The notes under the pieces were generated by a model that was given only the letters and a program-made list of their open reading frames with translations, was not told where the DNA came from and ran no database searches. Positions 1,000 through 64,000 of a stretch of 64,000 nt of DNA are shown here, piece by piece. The translations under genes and the position numbers were made by a program. The stretch is from Tepidiformaceae bacterium (lineage in GTDB: Bacteria > Chloroflexota > Dehalococcoidia > Tepidiformales > Tepidiformaceae). Position 1 is the first letter of the stretch; each line of letters starts with the position of its first letter. The stretch spans positions 595,289 through 659,288 of the forward strand of contig OY282446.1 in the NCBI GenBank assembly GCA_958295975.1, written 5' to 3'.

Positions 1000-1205
1000 A
1001 CCCCGTCTGCGGGCGGGAGGTCGCGGAGCGCGACGTCGACGCCCTCGCCGGGCGGCTCCCCGGCGGCGCGCGCGAACGGCCATCGGGCGCGGGCGTCAAG
1101 CGCTTCTACGGCGGCCGCTGGCACTACTTCTGCTCCGTCCAGTGCCGCCTCGCCTTCATGGCCACCCCCGACGCCTTCGGGGGCGGCGCGAACGAGCCCT
1201 CCTAA
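948..1205 (+). CDS. small YHS/TRASH-type metal-binding domain protein (start uncertain)
   Basis: DPVCGREV...KRFYGGRWHYFCSVQCRLAF fits the YHS/TRASH pattern (DPVCG...yFCS..C...F). No ATG lies nearby. An in-frame GTG at 948 or CTG at 990 are the only start candidates. The ORF overlaps the 3' end of the ACAD gene. Confidence 0.4.
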   Translation: MSRPRRRHARRGAALALDPVCGREVAERDVDALAGRLPGGARERPSGAGVKRFYGGRWHYFCSVQCRLAFMATPDAFGGGANEPS

Positions 1206-3145
1206 TCGGGAAGGGCGAACTCCACGCTCCAGAGATGCCCCGTGTCGTCGTACTGCCCCGTGAGGATGCGGGCGATGCCGTAGTCCGGCAGCTCGACGGT
1301 CGTCAGGCACTTCCCGTCGAACCGCGTGGCCTGCCGGTCGAAGAAGAAGTCGAGGTTGTCGAACCCGTACTGCTGCCGCTCCTGAGGCAGATCGGACGGA
1401 TCGTCGGGGTCGACATGCAGGAAGAACCACGCCTCCGTATCCGCCGGGGCGCACGGCTCTCTGACGTAGACCAGCGTGCGCCCGTTGACGTACACGTCGA
1501 AGGCGCCGCTGGCCGCCAGTTCGCCGGATTCATCCGTCAGCTCGTTCAGGTAGCGGTTCACGTTGGCGCGGTAGCCCGCTTCGTCGAAGCGCCATCCGAT
1601 GGGGAAGCGGTAGACGCCGCCATCGGAAAACTCGCCCACGACTTCCACGCCGGGCAGGAGGTGGATCGTGTCGGCGTATTCGGCCTGGGGGGAGAGGCCT
1701 CCGGCGACGAGCACGACATGCGCGCCTCCCCTCGGGATGCGGGAAACCAGACTCCTGAAGCCTTCCCCGCTCCAGCGGTACCGCCCCTCGCTTGCCGGCA
1801 CCCCGCTGCGGTACCACACCAGATCAAACAGTGGACTGTAGACTGTTCCTGAAACGGGGTTATTCTCCAGCCAGGACAGGGTTTCCGATTCATCCCACTC
1901 GGCAGTATGATGAAGCCACTCCGGATACCCGCGATCCAATCCTTCGGAAGTATCGGATATGTCTTTTTGGATCGTGAATCCGAAATGAATGATACATCCG
2001 ATCATGATGACAGAAACTAGCACCCATTGCAATAGATTACTACTTCTTGACATTAACCTGTCTCCCCAATAAGAAGTCACCAGAATCATTGGGACGTAAA
2101 CAGGCAAAAGATACCGGCCATCTATTGAAGTTCCTGACGTCAGTGGAGTGATGACGGCTATCATTCCCAAATAGATGAGAACGAACAATCCAAGAGGAAG
2201 TACTGGACTGGAGAATGAGCGCAGACACACTCTTTCATCTCTCCTTGATATAACATACGAAAACACTATTACAAAGAAAATAGTAAAAGGAATGTAGAGG
2301 AAGTTCATGAGGTCATGTTCGGTAGGAATAATCCATTGGTCGAATACCGAGAGAATTTGTCGCACGGAATCCAGGATGCTCTGATCTGATGCGAATCTCC
2401 TGTCTCCAATCAACGTCTGCGCCGTTGTCTGATTGTAGACCAGTGCTCCCGCCAATGGGATCGAGGATATGGCTCCAAAGGCCAGAGAAGACTGCAATTT
2501 CTCACTGAATGTCCCGCGTCGCAGGATCATCATCAACAATCCGGCGGTCATTCCAAAGACTCCGGTGTAGCGGGTGACCGCCGCCAGTCCGAAAAGCACT
2601 GCTCCCAGCACCATCGGCGTCCTCTTCCCCGATTGCAAAAACGAATCCATCCGGAACAGGGCCATGAGGGTCAACAGAATGAACAACGGTTCGGTCATTA
2701 GATAGGATGACCTGTCGATCAAGGGGTACGCGACGAGTACGGCGAATGTGCCACCCAGCGCCAGCAGCTGTGAACGGAGGGTACGGGTCAGCCAGATTCC
2801 GGATACCAGGACGATCAACCCGAAGGATGCGGCGTTGATCCACCGCCCCGCCTCTTCCGCATCCATTCCAATCAGTTCGAAGAGTGCAAGCAGCATGGGG
2901 AAAAGCGGTGGCCAGTACACGTAGGGCTTTCCGTCGAAGCTCTTCAGGCCGGCTCCGTCGGCCAGGTTCTCAGCCGCTGCCAAATAGTACGTGGCGTCGA
3001 AACCGACGGCCGCGCCGTACGTCCAGGTGCGCACGAGAATGTGCGTCGCGCCCAACGCCGCCATGACCACGACCAGCACCAGCGTGATGCGATGGTTCGG
3101 GGGGAAAGGCAGCTGGCGCATGGCTCGAATCATGGATCGCCTCAT
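1202..3145 (-). CDS. GT-C fold (ArnT/PMT_2-like) membrane glycosyltransferase with unassigned C-terminal module, copy 1
   Basis: 647-aa ORF with many hydrophobic helices. The N-terminal region TWTYGAAVGFDATYYLAAAENLADGAGLKSFDGKPYVYWPPLFPMLLAL is typical of GT39/GT83-like enzymes. The ATG at 3143-3145 overlaps the TGA of copy 2 (ATGA). Confidence 0.8.
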   Translation of the reverse strand: MRRSMIRAMRQLPFPPNHRITLVLVVVMAALGATHILVRTWTYGAAVGFDATYYLAAAENLADGAGLKSFDGKPYVYWPPLFPMLLALFELIGMDAEEAGRWINAASFGLIVLVSGIWLTRTLRSQLLALGGTFAVLVAYPLIDRSSYLMTEPLFILLTLMALFRMDSFLQSGKRTPMVLGAVLFGLAAVTRYTGVFGMTAGLLMMILRRGTFSEKLQSSLAFGAISSIPLAGALVYNQTTAQTLIGDRRFASDQSILDSVRQILSVFDQWIIPTEHDLMNFLYIPFTIFFVIVFSYVISRRDERVCLRSFSSPVLPLGLFVLIYLGMIAVITPLTSGTSIDGRYLLPVYVPMILVTSYWGDRLMSRSSNLLQWVLVSVIMIGCIIHFGFTIQKDISDTSEGLDRGYPEWLHHTAEWDESETLSWLENNPVSGTVYSPLFDLVWYRSGVPASEGRYRWSGEGFRSLVSRIPRGGAHVVLVAGGLSPQAEYADTIHLLPGVEVVGEFSDGGVYRFPIGWRFDEAGYRANVNRYLNELTDESGELAASGAFDVYVNGRTLVYVREPCAPADTEAWFFLHVDPDDPSDLPQERQQYGFDNLDFFFDRQATRFDGKCLTTVELPDYGIARILTGQYDDTGHLWSVEFALPD

Positions 3146-5106
3146 TGCTCCCGGCCTGTGGAGAGGGCGAACTCCACGCTCCAGAGACGCCCCGTGTCAT
3201 CGTACTGTCCCGTACGGATGCTGGCGATGCCGTAGGCGGGCAGCTCGACGGTCGTCAGGCACTTCCCGTCGAACCACGTGGCCTGCCGGTCGAAGAGGAA
3301 GTCGAGGTTGTCGAACCCGTATTGCTGGCGCTCCTGAGGCAGGTCGGCGGGATCGTCGGGGTCGATGTGCAGGAAGAACCACGCCTCCGTATCTGCCGGG
3401 ATGCACGGCTCCCTGACGTAGACCAGCATGCGCCCGTTGACGTACACGTCGAAAGTGGAACTGGCCGCCAGCTCGCCGGATTCCTCCGTCAGTTCGTTCA
3501 GGTAGCGGTTCACGTTGGCGCGGTAGCCCGCTTCGTCGAAGCGCCATCCGGCGGGGAAGCGGTAGACGCCGCCATCGGAAAACTCGCCCACGACTTCCAC
3601 GCCGGGCAGGAAACGGATCGTGTCGGCGTATTCGGCCTGAGGGAAGGAGCCTCCGGAGACGAGCACGGCATGCGCGCCTTCCCTCGGGATGCGGGAAACG
3701 AGGCTTCTGAGGTTTTCCCCGATCCAGTGGTACCGCCCCTCGCTTGCCGGCGCCCCGCTGCGATACCACACCAGGTCAAACGCTGGGCTGGAGACTATCC
3801 CGGAAACAGGGTTAGTCTCCAGCCAGGAAAGGGTTTCCGATTCATCCCATTCAGCAGTATGATGAAGCCACTCCGGATACCCGCGATCCAATCCTTCGGA
3901 AGTATCGGATATATCTTTTTGGATCGTGAATCCGAAATGAATAATACATCCGATCATGATGACAGAAACTGGCACCCATTGCAATAGATTACCGCTATTT
4001 CTCGACATTAACCTGTCTCCCCAATAAGAAGTCACCAGAATCGTTGGGACGTAAACAGGCAAAAGGTACCGGCTATCTATGGGGGTTCCTGCCGCCAATG
4101 GAGTGATGACAGTGATCATTCCCAAGTAGATGAGAATGAACAATCCAAAAGGAAGAAATGAACTGGAAAGTAAACGTGAATATTCTCTTTTTCCATTAAC
4201 CTTCAATAAAGCGTAAAAAGTCACCATCACAAAGAAAAGGATAAATGGGATATATAGAAAATTCACAAAGTTGTATTCAGTGGGAATAATCCATTGATCG
4301 AACACTGAAAGAATCTGTTTCATGGAATCCAGGATGCTCTGACCCGATGCAAATTCCCTGCCTCCGGTCAGCGTCTGCGCTGTTGCCTGGTTGTAGGCCA
4401 GTGCTCCCGCCAATGGGAGCGAGGAGATGGCTCCAAAAGACAGAGAGGACTTCAGTTTCTCGTTGAACGTCCCGCGTCGCAGGATCACCATCAACAACCC
4501 GGCGATCATTCCGAAGATTCCGGTGTAGCGGGTCACCGCCGCCAGTCCGAAAAGCACTGCTCCCAGCACCATCGATGTTCTCTTCCCCGATTGCAGAAAC
4601 GACTCCATTCGGAATAAGGCCATGAGGGTCAACAGGATGAACAACGGTTCGGTCATCAGGTAGGATGACCTGTCGATCAAGGGGTACGCGATGAGTACGG
4701 CGAACGTGCCGCCCAGCGCCAGCAGCCGCGAACGGAGAGTTCGGGTCAGCCAGATTCCGGATACGAGGACGATCAACCCGAAGGATGCGGCGTTGATCCA
4801 CCGTCCCGCCTCTTCCGCACCCAACCCAATCAGCTCGAAGAGCGCGAGCAGCATGGGAAAAAGCGGCGGCCAGTGCACGTAGTGGAGACCTTCGAAGCTC
4901 TTCAGGCCAGCTCCGGCGGCCAGGTTCTGAGCCGTGGCCAAATAGTGCGTGGCGTCGAAACCGACGGCCGCGCCGTACGTCCAGGTGCGCACGAGGATGT
5001 GCGCCGTGCCCAGCGCCGCCATGGCCACCACCAGCAGCACGGGCAGGGTCTGGCGGTTCGGGCGGAAGCGCGCGACGGACGCGATCACGCGGGACGCCTG
5101 CGGCAT
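3142..5106 (-). CDS. GT-C fold (ArnT/PMT_2-like) membrane glycosyltransferase, copy 2
   Basis: This is a paralog of 1202..3145 with long near-identical stretches. I chose the start at ATG 5104-5106 (MPQASRVIASVARFRPNRQTL...) because it aligns with the N-terminus of copy 1. The longer ORF to 5223 would overlap the divergent CocE gene and its RBS. Confidence 0.8.
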   Translation of the reverse strand: MPQASRVIASVARFRPNRQTLPVLLVVAMAALGTAHILVRTWTYGAAVGFDATHYLATAQNLAAGAGLKSFEGLHYVHWPPLFPMLLALFELIGLGAEEAGRWINAASFGLIVLVSGIWLTRTLRSRLLALGGTFAVLIAYPLIDRSSYLMTEPLFILLTLMALFRMESFLQSGKRTSMVLGAVLFGLAAVTRYTGIFGMIAGLLMVILRRGTFNEKLKSSLSFGAISSLPLAGALAYNQATAQTLTGGREFASGQSILDSMKQILSVFDQWIIPTEYNFVNFLYIPFILFFVMVTFYALLKVNGKREYSRLLSSSFLPFGLFILIYLGMITVITPLAAGTPIDSRYLLPVYVPTILVTSYWGDRLMSRNSGNLLQWVPVSVIMIGCIIHFGFTIQKDISDTSEGLDRGYPEWLHHTAEWDESETLSWLETNPVSGIVSSPAFDLVWYRSGAPASEGRYHWIGENLRSLVSRIPREGAHAVLVSGGSFPQAEYADTIRFLPGVEVVGEFSDGGVYRFPAGWRFDEAGYRANVNRYLNELTEESGELAASSTFDVYVNGRMLVYVREPCIPADTEAWFFLHIDPDDPADLPQERQQYGFDNLDFLFDRQATWFDGKCLTTVELPAYGIASIRTGQYDDTGRLWSVEFALSTGREQ

Positions 5107-5176
5107 GGCCGCAGTATATCGCCCCCGCCCCCGCCGGTCGTGTACCCTTGCCCCGCGCAACGCGAAGGAGGCCCCC

Positions 5177-6931
5177 GTGAGTGAGCTGTCCGCCGCCGAC
5201 GTCATCGTCGACGAGAACGTCATGATCCCGATGCGCGACGGCGTGCGGCTGCAGGCCGACGTCCACCGCCCCGCCGGCGGCGGGCCCGTGCCCGCGCTTC
5301 TCTCCCGCTCCCCCTACGGGCGCAACCCCGGCGGACGGCCCGGCACGGGCGCCGACTTCTGGGTGCCCCGCGGCTACGCCTACGTGACCCAGGACTGCCG
5401 CGGGCGCTTCGGCTCCGAGGGCGACTACACGCCCCACCTGTACGAGGGCCCCGACGGCTACGACACGGTCGAGTGGATCGCCGCCCAGCCCTGGTGCGAC
5501 GGCGCCGTGGGCACGGTCGGCCAGTCCTACCTGGGCGCGGACCAGTACCAGCTCGCGCCCCACAATCCGCCCCACCTGAAGGCGCTGGCCCCCGTCTCCG
5601 GCACCTGCGACCACCGCCAGAGCTGGACCCGCCACGCGGGCGGCGCGCTGGAGCACGGCTGGATGGTGCCCTACTCCCTGCTCAAGGGCCGCAACACGCT
5701 CGAGCGCAAGGGCCTCACAGGCGCGGAGATGGAGACGCTCGAGGGCTACCTCGATCCGCCCGACGAGCACGGCTTCTTCGCCCAGCCGCTCACGCCCGAG
5801 GGCTACGCCCACGTGCCCCTCACGGACTGGTCCGAGCGCATGAAGGACAGCGCCCCCTACTTCGCCGAGTACCTCGAACATCCCGACGACGACCCCTACT
5901 GGTGGGAGATCAACGTGCGCCGCGGCTTCCACACCGTGGACGCGCCCATGCTCCACTTCGGCTCCTGGTACGACATCTTCCTGGAGGGCACGCTCGCCGG
6001 CTTCGAGGGCGTCAACGCCCTGGGCGGGCCCAACGCGCGCGGCCGGCAGCGCCTGCTCGTCGGCCCCTGGGGCCACATCGGCTACTCCGTGCCCACCACC
6101 GGCGGCTGCGGCGAGCTCGACTTCGGCCCCGAGGCCGCCATCGACTTCATGGAGATCCAGGAGCGCTGGTTCGGCCATTGGCTGAAGGGCGAGGACACCG
6201 GCGTCATGGACGAGGCCCCCGTCCGCATCTTCGTCATGGGCGAGAACCGCTGGCGCGACGAACGAGAGTGGCCCCTCGCGCGCACGCGCTACACCCCCTG
6301 GTACCTGCACAGCGGCGGCGCCGCCAACGGCCTCGACGGCGACGGCGCGCTCAGCCCCGAGGCGCCCGCCGTCGAGCCGCCCGACCGCTACGTCTACGAC
6401 CCGCGCGACCCCGTCCCCAGCCTGGGCGGCAACAACCTCATCATCCCCCGCGGCGTCTTCGACCAGCGCCCCGCCGAACGGCGCGACGACGTGCTCGTCT
6501 ACACCGGCGAGGCGCTGACGGAGCCGCTGGAGGTGACCGGGCCCCTGCGCGTCACGCTCTGGGCCGTCTCCTCCGCCGTCGATACCGACTTCACGGCCAA
6601 GCTGGTGGACGTGCACCCCGACGGCTACGCCCGCAACCTGCAGGACGGCATCATCCGCGCGCGCTACCGCGATTCGGCCAGCTCGCCCAGCCTGCTCACG
6701 CCCGGCCAGCCCTACCGCTACGAGATCGACCTCTGGGCCACCAGCCACGTCTTCCTGCCGGGGCACCGCATCCGGCTGGAGATCAGCTCCTCCTGCTTCC
6801 CGCGTTTCGACCGCAACCCGAACACGGGAACGCCCGTGGAGAGCGAGGCGAACCTCGTGCCCGCCGCGCAGCAGGTGCTGCACGACGCGCACCATCCCTC
6901 GCACGTCACCCTGCCGGTGATCCCGCGCTGA
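5177..6931 (+). CDS. CocE/NonD family hydrolase (X-Pro dipeptidyl-peptidase S15-like)
   Basis: GTG at 5177 is preceded by GAAGGAGG. Motifs SRSPYGRN, YVTQDCRGRFGSEGDY and GTVGQSYLGADQ (GxSYxG nucleophile elbow) are characteristic of the family. Confidence 0.85.
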   Translation: MSELSAADVIVDENVMIPMRDGVRLQADVHRPAGGGPVPALLSRSPYGRNPGGRPGTGADFWVPRGYAYVTQDCRGRFGSEGDYTPHLYEGPDGYDTVEWIAAQPWCDGAVGTVGQSYLGADQYQLAPHNPPHLKALAPVSGTCDHRQSWTRHAGGALEHGWMVPYSLLKGRNTLERKGLTGAEMETLEGYLDPPDEHGFFAQPLTPEGYAHVPLTDWSERMKDSAPYFAEYLEHPDDDPYWWEINVRRGFHTVDAPMLHFGSWYDIFLEGTLAGFEGVNALGGPNARGRQRLLVGPWGHIGYSVPTTGGCGELDFGPEAAIDFMEIQERWFGHWLKGEDTGVMDEAPVRIFVMGENRWRDEREWPLARTRYTPWYLHSGGAANGLDGDGALSPEAPAVEPPDRYVYDPRDPVPSLGGNNLIIPRGVFDQRPAERRDDVLVYTGEALTEPLEVTGPLRVTLWAVSSAVDTDFTAKLVDVHPDGYARNLQDGIIRARYRDSASSPSLLTPGQPYRYEIDLWATSHVFLPGHRIRLEISSSCFPRFDRNPNTGTPVESEANLVPAAQQVLHDAHHPSHVTLPVIPR

Positions 6932-6999: not shown

Positions 7000-8325
7000 C
7001 TAGCGGTCGGGATCGTAGAGGTACTGCTCCAGCGCGTGGTGCATGGCGCGGATGCGGCGCTCCTCGCTGTTCAGGAGGATGCCGTTGAAGCCGCGCGAGT
7101 GGTAGGACTCCTGCACGATCTGGGCCTGCGCCATGTCCTGCGCCAGCGCCTCGAACACCTCCACGTCGCGCGCCGTGCCGTACACCGTCTGCGGACGCGG
7201 GGGCACGGGCGTGCCCTCCGGCAGGCGCACGGACACCTGGTAGTCCCACAGGCACTTGTTCGGGTCCGTGGGGTGCGGGCGCGCGCGGAAGTAGGTGAGC
7301 GAGGTGCCCCCGATGTTGAGCGTGATGTTGGGGAAGATCATGTAGTGGTAGTCGTCGATCAGCTGCTCGTCGTGCAGCGCCGACACGTCCACGCCCATCT
7401 GCTCGTAGAGCGCGCGGCGCGCCTGCATGATGGCCGGGCGCACGTCGTCCACGCCGCCCTCGAACGACTCCTTCGCGATGCCCACCGCCGCCAGCTGCTG
7501 CCACTGCGAGTCGGTGATCATCTCCTTGCCGTCGTAGCCGTGGCGGCGCGCCATGTCGTCCGTCCAGGCCCCCCCGTCGGGGTAGCCCTGGCGGATGAGC
7601 TGGCGGCTGTGCCTGCCCCCGTCGTACACGTCCAGCGGCGTGCCCGCCGTGTCCCACCACTCGATCAGCTGCGGATGGAGCGCGGGCAGGTGGTAGATCT
7701 CGGCGAACTGGTCCACCGCGAACTTCCAGTTGCAGGCCCACTCCAGCTGGTAATCCTGCACCAGGTGGTAGTCCTCGAAATGGTAGGGGTCGAGGTGCGA
7801 GGGGATGACGCCGAGGAACTCGTGCAGCGGCTCCGCCTGCGGGTCCATGTTGAAGAAGAGGTAGCCGCCCCACGCGTCCACGCGCACCTCCGAGAGGCAC
7901 TGCTTCTCCTCGGGGATGCCGTTCACGAAGTGCTGCCGGTCGGGCACGTCCGTGAGCCGACCCTCGATGTCGAAGGTCCACAGGTGGAAGGGGCACTGCA
8001 GCTGCTCGGCGTGGCCGAGGCCGGAGCTGGCGCGCAGGCGGCTGCCGCGGTGGGGGCAGACGTTGTAGAAGCCCTTGAACTTGCCCTCGCCCGTGCGCAG
8101 GAAGATGAACGACTCCCGCCCCAGGGCGTGCGTGAAGTAGTCGCCCGTCTCGGGGATGTCGCACAGCGGCCCGGCGATGTTCCACACCTTCGTCCACATG
8201 CGCTCCCACTCGAGCTCGGCGAACTCGGGCGAGGTGTAGCGCGTCGGGTCGATCGTGCCCGTGCCCATGTCGGGCTCGTTCACGCGCTCCAGCGGCGTCA
8301 TCGGCATCGGCTGCTTCGTGACCAT
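7000..8325 (-). CDS. Rieske [2Fe-2S] aromatic ring-hydroxylating oxygenase, alpha subunit
   Basis: Rieske motif CPHRGSRL...CPFHLWTF. An AGGGGGA RBS lies upstream of ATG 8323-8325. 441 aa. Confidence 0.85.
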   Translation of the reverse strand: MVTKQPMPMTPLERVNEPDMGTGTIDPTRYTSPEFAELEWERMWTKVWNIAGPLCDIPETGDYFTHALGRESFIFLRTGEGKFKGFYNVCPHRGSRLRASSGLGHAEQLQCPFHLWTFDIEGRLTDVPDRQHFVNGIPEEKQCLSEVRVDAWGGYLFFNMDPQAEPLHEFLGVIPSHLDPYHFEDYHLVQDYQLEWACNWKFAVDQFAEIYHLPALHPQLIEWWDTAGTPLDVYDGGRHSRQLIRQGYPDGGAWTDDMARRHGYDGKEMITDSQWQQLAAVGIAKESFEGGVDDVRPAIMQARRALYEQMGVDVSALHDEQLIDDYHYMIFPNITLNIGGTSLTYFRARPHPTDPNKCLWDYQVSVRLPEGTPVPPRPQTVYGTARDVEVFEALAQDMAQAQIVQESYHSRGFNGILLNSEERRIRAMHHALEQYLYDPDR

Positions 8326-8434
8326 CGGGAATCCCCCTGCGCCGCCGGCGCGGCGACGGTTGCGTTCGCGCGCGGCGGGGCGCGCCGCCCGTTAGCATAC
8401 AGCGGCGCGCCCCTGCGCGCGGGAGCATTCGCAC

Positions 8435-39337: not shown

Positions 39338-40468
39338 TCAGTCTGAGAATAAATTAAATTCCTCTGGGTCGGAGTTGTCGACAAAATCCGGGTCGCGCCT
39401 ATACAAGAGATTCGAAAGAACCTCCTCGGGTATTGATTCGCCAGAACGAGTTCGCACCACCATAGGGTCGGGCTGGGTAGTCACAACAAATTGGTCAATT
39501 ATCCTCCGTTGCTTTTTTTCGCCAAAAGATCGCCACGCAGCAGGAGATATCATAATACCTTCAGTTTCATCTAGAATTGTCTTGGACAACAGGGCGGATG
39601 CAAGATTCGTATCTTCTTCCCAGAATGCGGGAATATAGACATGGACTAGGGAATCCCATCCTTTAGGGAAAGAAAGAATTGCAACATTTCTGTCAGGTTC
39701 TGGATAGACTGTCACGAACATTAGTATCTCGGAAGGAGATCGAATAATCCCTCTTTCTGCAATTTTCCTCTCTTCTCGTGGCGTACCCATATTCCTTCCT
39801 TCGCGGTAAGTAACGACATTGGCTGCAATTTTTGGGACACTTTTGATAACAATAATTCGATGTTCCATACCAGAATTTCTTCCATTACGCACGTGAATCA
39901 ATGCATTTTCTACCTGAATTTTGAATCTTTCTGCCAGAGCTTTTCGCTCGGCACTAATAGAAATCCTCGAAGAAAATACAGTCGTTTGGAACTCTCGCCC
40001 GAGTTCTTTATAAAACCTAAGTATCACACACTTCTTGAAGTAGTCAAACAGAACAGTACGATAAGCAAGCAGAAGGCAATGTTCTTCATTGGCAGCATCG
40101 AGGTTTCCTTTTTCGATTTGGGAAAACGTGCTATCATCGTGACGCTTGCATGCCCATTTTCCCGTGATGATCGGATTGCTAATACTACGATACTGACGGA
40201 AAATTTTATCTCTTTCATTTTCCATAGCACTCGCCATGGAGAAGTCTTTAATCACGTCAATGGACAAGATTTGCAATTTCCTCCTCTTATCCGCGATCAA
40301 GATGAGCTTAGCCTTCTGGATCGAGTGCGCCTCAACGAGTTGCACACTGCATTCAGATTGTGGTCCAATGAGACAGCGAGCCTCAGCGTTCCTAGCCCGC
40401 AGATATGCGGATTCCGCGCGCCTGAAGTCCTCGCGGGTAGGGCCATGCGGCCCCAAGTCCTTTTCCAT
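39338..40468 (-). CDS. AT-rich orphan protein (376 aa), function unknown
   Basis: It is the only long ORF in a ~1.1-kb segment that hand-counts at ~42-50% G+C, against ~75% in the flanks. The composition is non-repetitive. The N-terminus has C-x8-C-x7-H (CLIGPQSECSVQLVEAHSIQK). I recognised no family. Confidence 0.65.
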   Translation of the reverse strand: MEKDLGPHGPTREDFRRAESAYLRARNAEARCLIGPQSECSVQLVEAHSIQKAKLILIADKRRKLQILSIDVIKDFSMASAMENERDKIFRQYRSISNPIITGKWACKRHDDSTFSQIEKGNLDAANEEHCLLLAYRTVLFDYFKKCVILRFYKELGREFQTTVFSSRISISAERKALAERFKIQVENALIHVRNGRNSGMEHRIIVIKSVPKIAANVVTYREGRNMGTPREERKIAERGIIRSPSEILMFVTVYPEPDRNVAILSFPKGWDSLVHVYIPAFWEEDTNLASALLSKTILDETEGIMISPAAWRSFGEKKQRRIIDQFVVTTQPDPMVVRTRSGESIPEEVLSNLLYRRDPDFVDNSDPEEFNLFSD

Positions 40469-47071: not shown

Positions 47072-48242
<1,171 letters not shown>

Positions 48243-48250
<8 letters not shown>

Positions 48251-48271
48251 GATGCGCGCTCCTCCGCGCCC
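48243..48271. repeat. 29-bp direct repeat, left copy (contains the aroC RBS and GTG)
   Basis: CCCGTCACGATGCGCGCTCCTCCGCGCCC is identical to 49844-49872. The bases flanking each copy differ. Confidence 0.9.
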
Positions 48272-48352
48272 CATGCTACGCCAGCCGCGCGTTACGGCGC
48301 GGGCCAGAACCAGCGTTCGCGCATTGCGGGCGTGGATGCTATCCTGAGCGTG

Positions 48353-49180
48353 ATGCCCGAACCGCGCTCGATCTACCCGAAGCACTTCTCCCAGGGCCCG
48401 CCCGTGCCCCGCAGGAGGACGGGCTTCATCCTGATGCCGTTCAAAGGTGAGTTCGAGCCTGTCCACGAAGCCATCAAGGCGGCAATCGAGGATGCCAATC
48501 TTGAGCCGTTGCGGGCTGACGATGTCTTCAGCACGCAGGCGGGGATGGAGAAGATTCTGCGGGGAATCGCCGAGGCGGAGGTCGTCGTGGCCGACATGTC
48601 GGAGAGAAACGCGAACGTCTTCTACGAGGCGGGCATCGCCCACATGGCAAAGGAGAACGTTGTTCTTCTGACTCGGGACCGTAAAGACTTCCCGTTCGAC
48701 CTCCAGCACATCGACCACATCATCTACGAGCCGAGCGAGAAGGGCCTTCGGGAGCTTACGGAGCGGCTCGGCCAAGTTATCCGCAACCTTCCTCCCGAAC
48801 CAGCATTCGAGCTACGCAGCGCCAGCATCGCTGATCTATCCCCAGTACAAATTAAGCGTGAAATGCGTCGACTGCTCCATTCCTGCAAGCAGCAATGGTT
48901 GGATGACGTTATTCCTGCCCAAATCTCAGTGTTTGAAAAGGATTTTGAAGAGCGTATATTTCGTCACCAGTCGGATGTGGAGCAAGCGAAAGTGATCGAA
49001 GAGTCGATTCGTGTCATTCAGCCTGCTTTTTTGCGATCATGGCGGCCCATCGAAGAGATTGGATTCTCCATTATTGACCGCACGCATAGCGACATTTATC
49101 CCGGATTGATAGATGCTATAGAGCGTGCTTATTCTATCTCAATTATTCCCGGAAATCTTGATTGGATTAGTAGTTACTGA
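48353..49180 (+). CDS. nucleoside 2-deoxyribosyltransferase/TIR-like domain protein (N-terminal part of a TGA-interrupted frame)
   Basis: FILMPFKGEFEPVHEAIKAAI...VVVADMSERNANVFYEAGIAHMAKENVVLLT...FPFDLQH resembles the Rossmann-like NDT/TIR-like fold signature (D..g.n.NV.fE.G.A...gk.vi). Start is ATG 48353, or GTG 48350. It ends at TGA 49178-49180. Confidence 0.65.
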   Translation: MPEPRSIYPKHFSQGPPVPRRRTGFILMPFKGEFEPVHEAIKAAIEDANLEPLRADDVFSTQAGMEKILRGIAEAEVVVADMSERNANVFYEAGIAHMAKENVVLLTRDRKDFPFDLQHIDHIIYEPSEKGLRELTERLGQVIRNLPPEPAFELRSASIADLSPVQIKREMRRLLHSCKQQWLDDVIPAQISVFEKDFEERIFRHQSDVEQAKVIEESIRVIQPAFLRSWRPIEEIGFSIIDRTHSDIYPGLIDAIERAYSISIIPGNLDWISSY

Positions 49181-49186
49181 CCTCTC

Positions 49187-49750
49187 TTGGCACTCCGAAC
49201 ATGGATAGTCTGGGGGGCATATGCACTGGATTCCGAAAATTGGGAAATCGTCGAGACATTACTCCACAGCGAGATTGATTTTGGATATAACCAAAAGAGT
49301 TCGTTCTCCGAGTTCCGGTCGGCATTTTATCCACAGGCTTCAGGTAGAAATATTAAGCTAGCGATAGACTCTGTCTATCAGCAAGGAGAACAGTTGGCCA
49401 ATTCTCACTTTGGAGACACTGAGGCAATGAATGGTTTTATTAGTTTTTGGCTATTTTCTACTGATATTATGGCAGATGCCTCGGATTCTTGGATGCTCGG
49501 TGCGTGGTTCCGTTCTCCTGTAGGACAATTTGAAAAACTTGCTTCTCGTCTTGAACATGATTCTGAATACGCACGGAATTTTACTCAAGCCGTGACCCGT
49601 ACCAGCCCGGCATCGCTAAATCAGCGCTGGCAGGGTGGCAATCCCCTTAATCTTGGCAACCTCCGTAACCGCCTTTTGGATCGTGGGCGGTTGGGATCGA
49701 GAACATCGGCTTGGGATCTTCCCCAAATCCCTCAGCGCTTCGCGGAATAG
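49187..49750 (+). CDS. hypothetical protein in the same frame as 48353..49180 (possible C-terminal continuation)
   Basis: Only a TTG start is available (49187), with no RBS. It lies 6 nt after the TGA and in the same reading frame (frame 2). It appears alpha-helical and I recognised no family. Confidence 0.45.
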   Translation: MALRTWIVWGAYALDSENWEIVETLLHSEIDFGYNQKSSFSEFRSAFYPQASGRNIKLAIDSVYQQGEQLANSHFGDTEAMNGFISFWLFSTDIMADASDSWMLGAWFRSPVGQFEKLASRLEHDSEYARNFTQAVTRTSPASLNQRWQGGNPLNLGNLRNRLLDRGRLGSRTSAWDLPQIPQRFAE

Positions 49751-49843
49751 CGAGCGCTTGATCGCGCGCCGCATGACGGCCACGAGCGCGGCGATGATCC
49801 ATTCCTGGACGAGTACACAGTGATTCTCTCCTTGCGGGCCATG

Positions 49844-49872
49844 CCCGTCACGATGCGCGCTCCTCCGCGCCC
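49844..49872. repeat. 29-bp direct repeat, right copy (contains the 3' end and TGA of 49848..50504)
   Basis: Identical to 48243-48271. On the minus strand it reads ...GCG GAG GAG CGC GCA TCG TGA, the last codons of the upstream hypothetical gene, with an overlapping GTG. Confidence 0.9.
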
Positions 49873-50504
49873 GCGTCGGCGGGGGGGTAGGGGTGGCCGA
49901 GGGGGGGCGGGAGGGCGATGGGGACGGGCGCGCCGCTGGCGTCCGGCGGCTCGTACGCGGTGTCGAGGCGCGCGAGGATTTCGGCGGGATCGAGCCCGTC
50001 CCAATCGATGGCGTCGGCCTCGCGGCGGCGGGCGGTGGTGGTGAGGATGGGGCGCTGGATGGCCGCCCCGCCGTCCGCCGCGAAGGTGGCGTACACGTCC
50101 ACGCGAACGCTCCCGAGGCTGAGGTTGGGGACATCGTACAGCATCATCTCGGCCAGCCTGGCGGCGAGGGGGACGGCCTCGTCGAGCGCGGAGGCGACCT
50201 GCTCGCGCCGTCCGTCCACGGAGCGGAAGGCGCGCTCGGCGGAGGACTGTACGGTCGCGGCTTCGGCGTCGGCGGCCACCAGCTCGGCACGCTGGACGCC
50301 CGCCCAGAGACTCGGGGCCACGTCGCGGGGCGGGCGGGCGCGCCGCCAGCCGGCCATGGCCTCGAGGATGAGGGCGGCCACGATGGCGTGGTCGCCGGAG
50401 GCCACGCGCCGCCGCCAGCCGCGCTGCTGGAACATCTCCGTGGCGATGACCCAGCCGGTGAGCAGGAAGAGGGCGAGGGCGACGCTGACGCCGATGACGA
50501 TCAT
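49848..50504 (-). CDS. hypothetical membrane-anchored protein
   Basis: MIVIGVSVALALFLLTGWVIA is a TM helix, followed by a soluble domain and a Pro-rich tail. The ATG overlaps the aroE TGA (ATGA). Confidence 0.6.
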   Translation of the reverse strand: MIVIGVSVALALFLLTGWVIATEMFQQRGWRRRVASGDHAIVAALILEAMAGWRRARPPRDVAPSLWAGVQRAELVAADAEAATVQSSAERAFRSVDGRREQVASALDEAVPLAARLAEMMLYDVPNLSLGSVRVDVYATFAADGGAAIQRPILTTTARRREADAIDWDGLDPAEILARLDTAYEPPDASGAPVPIALPPPLGHPYPPADAGAEERAS

Positions 50505-59728: not shown

Positions 59729-60940
59729 ATGGCGGACGCGGACAACGCGGACATCGATCGCGCGCGCTGGATCGCCCTGCGGCGCGCGGGCCTGGGGTCG
59801 GAGAGCTTTCGCAACCTGATCGCCCGCTTCGGCGGCGTCGCCGAGGCGTGGGACGCGCCCGACGGCGAGGCCAAGCGCGCGGGGCTGCGCACGCAGTACG
59901 TGCGCGCCTTCGAGCGGGCGCGGCGCACGTTCGACCCCGAACGGGAGCTGGCGGCGCTGGCCGAACACGACGTGCGCACCCTCACCTGGGAGGACGCGGA
60001 GTACCCCGAGCTGCTCAGGGAGATTCCCCAGAGCCCGCCCGTGCTGTTCGCCCGGGGGAGCGCGGGGCCGCGCTTCGCGCAGGCGCTGGCGGTGGTGGGC
60101 ACGCGTGACGCCACGCCCTACGGACGGGAGGCCTGCGAGCAGCTGTGCGGGGCGGCGGCGCGCGCGGGCGTGGCCATCGTGAGCGGGCTGGCGCGCGGCA
60201 TCGACGCCCTCGCCCACCGCGCCGCGCTCGACGCGGGCGCGCCCACGGTGGCCGTGCTGGGCGGCGGCATCGACGCCATCTACCCGCGCGAGCACGCGGG
60301 GCTGGCGGAGCGCATCATGGCGAACGGCTGCCTGCTCTCGGAGTACCCGGTGGGGTCGAAGGCGAGGCCGGACCACTTCCCGCGGCGCAACCGCATCATC
60401 GCCGGGCTGGCGCAGGCCACGCTGGTGGTGGAGGCGGGCGAGCGCAGCGGGGCGCTGCTCACGGCCGACCACGCGCTGGAGCAGAACCGCGAGGTGCTGG
60501 CCGTGCCGGGCGACATCTTCTCGCCGCGCAGCAAGGGCGTGAACCGGCGCATCCGCGAGAGCGGGGCGAAGCTGGTGGGCTCGGCGGAGGACCTGCTCGA
60601 GGAGCTGAACCTGCTCAGCGTGGGGGCGCAGCCGCCGTTGCCGGAGATGCCGCGGGTGGCCCCTGCCGCGCCACGCGGGGAGACGGGTCCGCGCGAGTCC
60701 GCTCCCATTCCCGCTCCCGCCGAAACGGCGGCGGCAGCGCCCGCGCCGCCGGAGCCCGAGCCGGCGAACGACGCCGAGGGGCGCGTGCTCCAGTGCCTGG
60801 AGGGCGGGCCGCTGCACGTGGACGAGGTGGCGCGGCTGGCGGAGCTGCCGATCCAGGCGGTGACGGCGGCGATGCTGACGCTGGAGCTGCGGGGGCTGGT
60901 GCGGCAGCAGGCGCCGATGACCTACCGGCGCGCGCCGTAG
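59729..60940 (+). CDS. dprA: DNA-processing protein DprA
   Basis: VGTRDATPYGRE...IVSGLARGIDALAHRAAL...VLGGGIDAIYPREH Rossmann-like core, plus a C-terminal winged-helix tail. Confidence 0.9.
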   Translation: MADADNADIDRARWIALRRAGLGSESFRNLIARFGGVAEAWDAPDGEAKRAGLRTQYVRAFERARRTFDPERELAALAEHDVRTLTWEDAEYPELLREIPQSPPVLFARGSAGPRFAQALAVVGTRDATPYGREACEQLCGAAARAGVAIVSGLARGIDALAHRAALDAGAPTVAVLGGGIDAIYPREHAGLAERIMANGCLLSEYPVGSKARPDHFPRRNRIIAGLAQATLVVEAGERSGALLTADHALEQNREVLAVPGDIFSPRSKGVNRRIRESGAKLVGSAEDLLEELNLLSVGAQPPLPEMPRVAPAAPRGETGPRESAPIPAPAETAAAAPAPPEPEPANDAEGRVLQCLEGGPLHVDEVARLAELPIQAVTAAMLTLELRGLVRQQAPMTYRRAP

Positions 60941-60990
60941 GGGCGGCGGGGGCGATGCGCGAATCTTCACATTCGGGGGCGGGGGGCAAT

Positions 60991-61020
60991 TTGACAGGAT
61001 GGGCGGCAGGCCCCATTCTT
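60991..61020 (+). promoter_or_regulatory. candidate rRNA operon promoter
   Basis: TTGACA at 60991-60996, a 17-nt spacer, then CATTCT at 61014-61019. It lies about 120 nt upstream of the 16S 5' end. The -10 element is weak. Confidence 0.35.
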
Positions 61021-61051
61021 CTCCTTCGGGCCTGTCGCAGGGTCCGGCGGA

Positions 61052-61060
61052 CTTTAACAA
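61052..61060 (+). promoter_or_regulatory. boxA-like antitermination element (leader)
   Basis: CTTTAACAA matches the core of the E. coli rrn boxA (TGCTCTTTAACAA). A related copy lies upstream of 23S. Confidence 0.4.
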
Positions 61061-61135
61061 CTGGATAGCGGACGAAAGAGAACGTCTGGGAACCCGTCGA
61101 GGGAATGATCCCGGTCTCCGGATCGGGTGGAAGCT

Positions 61136-62640
<1,505 letters not shown>

Positions 62641-62811
62641 AGGGAGTACGCCCTTCCGGCAAGACGCCCCGGCACGCGGTGTGCCGGAGCGCGGAAGGGA
62701 ACAACCCCCAGGTCGATCGTCGCGGGTTCGCCCCGCGGCGTCCCAACAGGCCTTCAGGCGGCCTGCTTCCGTCCGCTATTCAGCTCTTAAAGGCCGTGCC
62801 GGCCCGACCGG

Positions 62812-62888
62812 GGGCCATTAGCTCAGCTGGTTAGAGCGCAGTCCTGATAAGACTGAGGTCTCTGGTTCGAGTCCAGAATGGCCCACCA
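62812..62888 (+). tRNA. tRNA-Ile (anticodon GAT)
   Basis: GGGCCAT/ATGGCCC acceptor stem, anticodon loop CCTGATAAG, TPsiC arm GGTTCGAGTCC, encoded CCA. Confidence 0.95.
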
Positions 62889-62906
62889 CCGCCGTGGCCA
62901 GGGCGC

Positions 62907-62982
62907 GGGGCCGTAGCTCAGCTGGGAGAGCGCCGCCTTTGCAAGGCGGAAGTCGGGAGTTCGATTCTCCCCGGCTCCACCA
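62907..62982 (+). tRNA. tRNA-Ala (anticodon TGC)
   Basis: GGGGCCG/CGGCTCC acceptor stem with a G3:U70 pair, anticodon loop CTTTGCAAG, GGTTCGATTCC-like TPsiC arm, encoded CCA. Confidence 0.95.
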
Positions 62983-63066
62983 TCGGGCAACCTGCGGGAC
63001 CGGCGGCACGGGCTTCGCGATCGGCGAGCGCCAGGGGGCGCTCGCCGGCGGCGAAGCCGGAAACGG

Positions 63067-63080
63067 ACCTTCACAACTGA
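63067..63080 (+). promoter_or_regulatory. boxA-like element in the spacer upstream of 23S
   Basis: ACCTTCACAACTGA compared with the leader ACTTTAACAACTGG at 61051-61064 shows 11 of 14 identical positions. Confidence 0.3.
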
Positions 63081-63173
63081 AGAGCGATGGAACTGCGAAC
63101 GGGTTCGGCGTGCGTCCCCTCGGGGATGGGTGCCGGAGCCGGGAGAGATCCAATGCGTGCGAGCCTTGATTGA

Positions 63174-64000
<827 letters not shown>

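Follow-up and report, generated by a model that had tools for sequence, protein, structure and literature searches.

The window analysed here, a stretch of 64,000 nucleotides from a Tepidiformaceae bacterium (contig OY282446.1, positions 595,289 to 659,288 of the forward strand), carries an AT-rich insert inside the aro operon, between aroC (chorismate synthase) and the conserved hypothetical gene upstream of it (hyp). It raises the question of how an insert came to lie exactly at the overlapping stop and start of two genes with both still translatable, and of what became of it afterwards. We lean, with somewhat better than even confidence, towards an old insertion that duplicated the stop/start junction and then became a small defence hotspot between core genes. 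This reading is built on an ancestral empty state, a junction shared by the occupied loci, decayed hyp-side copies of that junction, diverse cargo, and the lack of a nearby recombinase; the mechanism of the founding insertion, and recombination as the route of later turnover, are proposed from these.

The divided hyp/aroC junction

A sequence-only reading of this DNA had described perfect 29-bp direct repeats on either side of the insert, and these proved exact: the 29-mer CCCGTCACGATGCGCGCTCCTCCGCGCCC was present in exactly two copies in the window, at 48243-48271 and 49844-49872 (29/29 matches, direct orientation), with different sequences directly outside the left and right copies. No third copy with up to three mismatches was found in the window, nor was one found in 100 shuffles. 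Read on the minus strand, the right (hyp-proximal) copy closes the hyp open reading frame (ORF; 49848..50504, minus strand, 218 amino acids, ...ADAGAEERAS*) with its last codons and TGA, and continues into a now-orphaned GTG start. The left (aroC-proximal) copy, on the same strand, supplies the GGAGGAG ribosome-binding site (RBS) and the GTG start of aroC (47072..48250, minus strand; PF01264 Chorismate_synt, E 3.4e-116), and also retains a leftover hyp tail (..WGAEERAS*). The reading frames agreed with the earlier assignment of the hyp end with its TGA, and of the aroC GGAGGAG and GTG, to the repeat. The four bases flanking the copies were mirrored: GCGT, 29-mer, CATG on the left (48239-48275) and CATG, 29-mer, GCGT on the right (49840-49876), such that a reconstructed empty site would be GCGT-29-GCGT and a circle would be CATG-29-CATG. 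This arrangement may be due to chance, as relatives do not keep GCGT on their hyp side.

Searches with the hyp protein gave three loci from genomes and 80 from metagenomes, and hyp and aroC lay on either side of the region in all of the occupied loci and approximately 70 empty ones. In these ~70 empty loci (hyp 34-74% identical to that of the window), aroC started 0-270 bp after the hyp match, mostly less than 100 bp, and the usual junction was GGAGG...cTGATGgg, in which the stop of hyp and the start of aroC overlap and the aroC RBS lies inside the hyp tail. The 29-mer was homologous to this coupled junction; therefore, the earlier inference that the insertion occurred at a coupled stop/start junction and regenerated both gene ends is correct, the unsplit junction being visible in ~70 relatives. 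These relatives were distant: their hyp proteins were at most 74% identical to that of the window, none being closer, and the divergence at 4-fold degenerate sites was 0.37-0.44 to the nearest empty-site relative. On the other hand, the ten loci whose hyp was 86% identical or more were all occupied at the same point, none being empty. Empty sites in related genomes, which the sequence-only reading had proposed to look for, were thus present among the more distant relatives, but absent from the ten close-clade loci. The same reading had held that an insert common to all relatives would indicate an ancient, non-mobile origin; this largely applies to the insertion event, while the content is still turning over (see below).

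Turnover of the cargo and decay of the hyp-side copy

The occupied loci belonged to Tepidiformaceae (Chloroflexota) genomes assembled from metagenomes. On their aroC side, each showed the 29-mer (26-29 matches of 29) followed by a conserved arm of ~36 nt, CATGCTACGCCAGC... (48272..48307 in the window, no strand assigned), which adjoins the aroC-proximal copy whatever the cargo. Between hyp and aroC, on the other hand, at least seven cargo configurations were found, with inserts of 1-3 genes and 1.5-3.6 kb. L001, L087, and L088 carried alleles of a TIR-like gene, which is also the cargo of the window; L003, a GmrSD-type gene (GmrSD_N, E 2.5e-29); L004, an N6_N4-methyltransferase (MTase) gene with an HNH domain and two small ORFs; L089, a TIR-like gene together with MTase-HNH; L172 (and L173, another contig of this type), a trypsin-like gene (Pfam Trypsin_2) and GmrSD; and L174, MTase-HNH and a frameshifted GmrSD gene. 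L001, L004, and L089 were 97-99% identical over mltG, aroE, hyp, aroC, and aroKB, and contained three different cargo sets. Even where these three shared a gene type, its copies were only 50-83% identical. The MTase alleles showed 73-83% identity, and the alleles of the TIR-like gene ~45-60% at the protein level. The combination of near-identical flanks with differing, diverged cargo indicates that the content turns over much faster than the flanks diverge.

Defence-type matches among the cassettes were limited to family resemblance (GmrSD_N, MTase with HNH, and TIR-like), from which a defence role of the cargo genes may be suggested. Two cassette ORFs of 169 and 57 amino acids matched no family, and we know of no defence role for the trypsin-like cassette gene.

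The hyp-side copy of the junction behaved differently from the aroC-side copy: the nine other occupied loci had it only in decayed form or lacked it. In the sense of hyp, the right copy of the window and the next 31 nt (49813..49843, minus strand; CATGGCCCGCAAGGAGAGAATCACTGTGTAC), located directly after the hyp-proximal copy, aligned with the hyp tail and the MTase leader of L089 and L004 (window, CGCGGGCGCGGAGGAGCGCGCATCG--TGACGGGC--ATGGCCCGCAAGGAGAGAATCACTGTGTAC; L089, CGCGGGCGGGGAGTAG-GGACTTGGTTTGACGCGCCGCTGGCCCACATGG-GAGAATAA--GTGTAC). The Smith-Waterman scores were 46 (L089) and 42 (L004), and none of 500 dinucleotide shuffles reached them (means ~21-22 and maxima 36-40). The hyp-side copy of L089 and L004 showed 21 matches in 29 positions plus indels, and a G-to-T change created an earlier hyp stop; the same MTase leader followed the junction copy in L174, L089, and L004. 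By this alignment, the duplication survives in decayed form in L089 and L004 as well, and 49813-49843 is the vestigial leader of an MTase-HNH cassette since lost from the window. The divergence at 4-fold degenerate sites among the lineages of the window, L089, and L004 was 0.12-0.13, and the decayed orthologous copy with its leader implies that these lineages separated after the duplication had occurred.

Vestiges of the right copy were less clear elsewhere. In L086, the sequence was collinear by eye, but the score was reached by 166 of 500 shuffles; in L001, L087, and L003, it was also collinear by eye, yet the best-scoring alignment lay in another part of the region, and none of these three loci possessed a recognisable second core. 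Among 31 hyp variants that were at least 86% identical, the tail was hypervariable after PPPIG(Q/H)P, all of them having non-ancestral tails, and the ending ..ADAGAEERAS was found in the window only. The 135 bp at 49756-49890 had no BLAST-detectable counterpart in relatives except for the 29-mer, which matched the aroC-side copies. Two further ideas on the repeat were discarded. One was a longer, older duplication, in which the arm would descend from the hyp tail; local alignments of the two did no better than shuffles, of which 30-933 of 1000 reached the score. Dating by the third aroC codon (ACG or ACC) was abandoned: the decayed right copy of L089 also reads TGACG, and ACG is thus ancestral and uninformative for dating.

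Origin of the duplicated junction

The duplicated pieces met several later fates in the relatives. In L172 (980-1000), the GTG of the trypsin-like gene overlaps the TGA of hyp (..GGAGCGCCCGTGAGCC..), the hyp-side copy still being a coupled start, and at 2247-2295 an arm with a decayed core sits between the trypsin-like and GmrSD cassettes (this scaffold contains a run of N at 1125-1224). In L174, the MTase-HNH cassette lies between direct repeats of the hyp 3' end (6553-6640 and 8301-8367; 67-88 bp in length and 98.5% identical over 67 nt). The C-terminal end of the TIR-like protein of L089 has been exchanged for other residues where it meets the MTase cassette. In L086 (4947-6598), a translocated TIR-like allele lies at an unrelated site, with an NTP-transferase gene on one side and nadE on the other; the block also contains 26 bp of aroC, the 29-mer with three mismatches, ~85 bp from the hyp tail, and the arm. 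These variable-length local repeats and imprecise joins do not fit a single site-specific recombinase with a fixed core, nor a transposase duplication of fixed length. The view of the 29 bp as a fixed att core is not supported, since other cassettes have repeats of different lengths and the L086 block was cut beyond the core; the insert does not read as a recent, self-contained mobile element, and the earlier claim of an att-bounded one is upheld only in part. The block of L086 starts (in the sense of hyp) with TGAGCCGCCGGA, at which the second hyp-tail copy of L174 begins as well, after the MTase stop codon. Downstream in L174, there is the frameshifted AT-rich GmrSD gene, in the orientation of the operon; a nested insertion in this gene was considered and rejected, because the sequence looks like that of a frameshifted gene in which the antisense ORF is spurious.

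Under the history that we favour, foreign DNA would have entered the coupled hyp/aroC junction in the ancestor of a Tepidiformaceae sub-clade and duplicated it, one copy keeping the hyp stop and the other the aroC RBS and start. Both hyp and the essential aroC would stay translatable because the insertion duplicated the junction, and only an insertion of that kind could have had this outcome. The gap between the copies would then have served as neutral ground inside an essential operon, in which cassettes (TIR-like, GmrSD, MTase-HNH, and trypsin-like) were gained, stacked, truncated, and replaced. Three routes may have contributed to this turnover: homologous recombination in the conserved flanks (aroC with the 29-mer and arm to one side, hyp to the other), recombination between the pieces left by the duplication (the stacking in L172 and the repeat in L174), and occasional illegitimate joins (L089 and L086). 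The window would represent one state of the hotspot, with a single nonsense-mutated TIR-like gene and the 31-nt vestige of an MTase leader. The arm and the aroC-side copy are probably conserved because they now constitute the 5' region of aroC. The hyp-side copy of the window may have stayed intact by chance, through past use as the coupled start of the lost MTase gene, or through homogenisation with the other copy by gene conversion. If this history is correct, the founding scar of a hotspot can be read base by base, as a duplicated coupled stop/start junction in an essential operon, and so can later states, in which the duplicated piece decays, is reused as the coupled start of an incoming gene, or separates stacked cassettes. 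It would provide a concrete and testable model of how a compact genome could gain a "safe landing pad" with no need of a tRNA gene or resident mobile element.

Several observations weigh against this history. The copy of the window is 29/29, whereas its counterpart in L089 and L004 has diverged by ~28%, and, at the measured divergence, 29 nt would stay unchanged with a rough Poisson probability of 0.05-0.15; moreover, the ..AEERAS tail was present in only 1 of the 31 hyp variants. The cassette boundary shared by L003, L004, and the TIR-type alleles, which is the end of the arm, is constant and looks more site-specific than random recombination. Furthermore, the absence of a recombinase covers ~5-6 kb on each side in the relatives, and one may be encoded elsewhere.

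A recombinase of that kind is the basis of the best-surviving alternative, which we nevertheless regard as unlikely: an integrase-less, att-flanked element (similar to a CIME or an integron; see below) moved by a tyrosine recombinase encoded elsewhere, with the 29-mer as the att core, the arm and leader as arm sites, and the window as a recent integration, the relatives being older and decayed. The sequence-only reading had also proposed a site-specific integrative element with an att core, and the perfect repeats at a duplicated junction are in line with it, as are the identical junction in all occupied loci, the inner flank conserved whatever the cargo, and the regeneration of a gene 3' end, as with islands at tRNA or protein genes. 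The tandem stacking in L172, with an internal arm and core, would correspond to accretion at att sites. However, no integrase turned up in the loci with recovered flanks: the called genes of L001, L089, L172, and L174 (~5-6 kb on each side) included no integrase, resolvase, or transposase, and none of the inserts contained a member of the Phage_integrase, Resolvase, or transposase families. The earlier statement that the element lacks an integrase and transposase thus extended from the window to the inserts and the ~5-kb flanks of the recovered loci. Neither the 29-mer nor the core-arm junction occurred exactly in the viral contigs of IMG/VR; a phage (attP-like) source, for which a check of phage sequences had been suggested, was rejected on this ground. 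The length and position of the repeat also varied (67-88 bp of the hyp tail in L174), the L086 block with its 26 bp of aroC and ~85 bp of hyp was not a precise att excision, L001, L003, and L087 lacked a second core, and no close relative was empty.

The perfect copy being confined to the window may instead indicate that the repeat is young and belongs to the lineage of the window only, an explanation that we consider slightly less likely still. DNA from the occupied locus of a relative would have entered recently, either as a circle through the short shared junction (Campbell-type) or as a linear aroC-anchored fragment joined illegitimately before the junction of the recipient. L086 shows that islet blocks with pieces of the flanks do move, other cassettes have local repeats of variable length, as if repeat length were homology length, and the absence of a BLAST counterpart to 49756-49890, except for the 29-mer, would be expected. 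On the other hand, this scenario needs an empty or repaired recipient, and every sampled member of the clade was occupied; the same order of copy and leader, decayed, in L089 and L004 points to inheritance; the cargo is already nonsense-mutated; and 29 bp is very short for a RecA-dependent crossover.

An integron-like platform, in which each cassette carries the arm and junction core as a site for an unlinked recombinase, is doubtful, and slightly more so than a young repeat. If true, transcription would come from the aro operon and a ready-made coupled translation start from the junction copy, and the perfect repeats of the window and the internal arm and core of L172 would be reaction products. 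Target-site duplication by a transposase or a casposase-like integrase, the element ends of which were later lost, would explain a direct repeat of the target around an insert with the ends CATG...CATG, but is very improbable: no terminal inverted repeats of the insert were found beyond this 4-bp palindrome at each end, there was no transposase or cas1, the length of the repeat differed between cassettes (29 and 67-88 bp), and the usual fixed target-site duplications are 2-15 bp. Least credible is an assembly artefact, in which a mis-resolved repeat joined strains with and without the insert, or a free circle to the chromosome; although the right junction (49756-49890) was found in no other assembly, the left junction recurred in nine others, the order of copy and leader recurred, decayed, in L089, L004, and L174, and the hyp frame closed cleanly through the copy with a tail resembling those of outgroups (..DREAS*). 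A dif/Xer-type site was rejected by inspection, the 29-mer lacking two inverted 11-bp arms.

Relation to known systems and the cargo protein family

A core-gene-flanked site of this type has counterparts in the core defence hotspots cDHS1 and cDHS2 of Pseudomonas aeruginosa (Johnson et al. 2023, PMC10250203). Exchange through homologous recombination in the flanks has been proposed for these hotspots, and how they are founded or rebuilt is an open question according to the authors (PMC10250203). The hyp/aroC site resembles them in its fixed core flanks, variable low-G+C content with defence-like gene families, and lack of obvious mobile-element genes, and its content likewise differs among close relatives with fast turnover, for which the flank-recombination route is also suitable. 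It is, however, tiny (1-3 genes and 1.5-3.6 kb, as opposed to a median of 26 kb; PMC10250203). In addition, the hyp/aroC site is located at a coupled junction in an essential operon and not beside a tRNA or tmRNA gene, and it keeps the scar of its founding, reused as a coupled start and as a separator of cassettes.

Integrase-less, att-flanked islands and tandem accretion at att sites have reportedly been described in work on ICESt1 and the cis-mobilisable elements (CIMEs) of Streptococcus thermophilus. CIMEs and the hyp/aroC inserts share direct repeats that regenerate a gene end, the lack of a recombination module in the insert, and an internal repeat between stacked units (L172). They differ in that no cognate integrase or parent element was found in the recovered loci, the repeat length is inconstant, the hyp-side copies are decayed in most genomes, and the translocated copy in L086 has flank DNA beyond the repeat. 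Similarly, the promoter-proximal stacking of single-gene cassettes, the arm and core at their boundaries, and the possibility that the host operon gives expression signals are reminiscent of integron arrays, whereas no intI, attI, or attC-type imperfect palindromes were evident at the locus, and the cassettes of the hotspot lie in both orientations with putative promoters of their own.

The G+C content of the window decreased from ~76% to 43-46% at 48.9-49.6 kb, and was ~60% in the left third of the insert (48.3-48.8 kb). The 1572-bp insert had been said to carry genes on the strand opposite to the operon: the strand was correct (plus), but there is one gene, 48353..49750, not several, and an in-frame TGA at 49178-49180 interrupts it. 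It is preceded by the upstream region of the cargo (48308..48352, plus strand; putative promoter), common to L001, L086, L087, L088, and L089, in which a candidate promoter (TTCGCG-N18-TATCCT) was picked by eye and was not called by a consensus scan. The 3' untranslated region (UTR; 49751..49812, no strand assigned) may contain a remnant of the first codons of the lost MTase-HNH gene: the alignment with L004 continues weakly, and the similarity to the 3' UTR of L001 and L087 was reached by 7-8 of 500 shuffles. Beyond the insert, hyp was always located between aroE and aroC, in this order, and its N-terminus contains a hydrophobic stretch resembling a membrane helix (by eye).

Approximately 30 homologues of the cargo protein (455-478 amino acids) span the full length uninterrupted, and the position of the TGA is that of a Gly in the conserved GHG(P/Q)LLALRTW motif of the intact homologues; therefore, the window copy is either a nonsense mutant (GGA to TGA) or contains a base error. 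The N-terminal 275 amino acids, with the TIR-like domain, could still be made. The family has a conserved N-terminal domain and a hypervariable C-terminal helical domain, and viral contigs and plasmids carry only the former. The N-terminal 150 residues of the window protein weakly matched a PADLOC TIR effector (E 6e-4), as did the intact homologue P0002 over ~60 residues (E 8e-7). The protein gave no match to Pfam TIR, and the score for PF05014 (nucleoside 2-deoxyribosyltransferase, NDT) was 13.6-18.5 bits, below the Pfam cutoff of 28.8. A sequence search of solved structures returned no usable match for the family. An AlphaFold model of P0002 (pLDDT 84.5) consisted of an alpha/beta N-terminal domain and an all-helical C-terminal domain, and the best Foldseek matches in the PDB were TIR domains, followed by DNPH1/Rcl and flavodoxin-like folds, all of which were weak (best E 2e-3). 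An invariant motif in the family alignment, NxNVFYExGIAH (P0002 residues 88-99), resembles the catalytic-Glu motif of nucleoside 2-deoxyribosyltransferases, and this resemblance suggests an N-glycosidase-type active site rather than that of a classical TIR domain. No full-length member among the matches was annotated or solved. This unannotated TIR/NDT-like family with its hypervariable C-terminal domain is a candidate defence gene. Compared with known TIR/NDT-like defence effectors, its modelled N-terminal alpha/beta domain would resemble TIR and DNPH1/Rcl by fold, but the protein remains below Pfam thresholds and has no partner genes, and the window copy is truncated by a stop codon. A homologue in a different genome, P0012, was located in a mobile/defence region (L002, 3001-12000), where its neighbours were an AbiV-type HEPN gene, DDE transposase fragments, an HTH/NYN gene, and a large serine recombinase.

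Three other stretches of the window also had a low G+C content. A second AT-rich (~40% G+C) single-gene islet at 39338-40468 (minus strand), between alcohol-dehydrogenase-like and holA-like genes, contained an ORF of 376 amino acids with no Pfam or PADLOC match, and was not flanked by direct repeats. Two tandem paralogous AT-rich genes at 1202-5223 (minus strand) encoded apparent multi-pass membrane proteins of 647 and 693 amino acids, in ~1.95-kb units that were 80-91% identical with a G+C minimum of 39%. The G+C content was also lowered at 60901-63901, to a minimum of ~58%.

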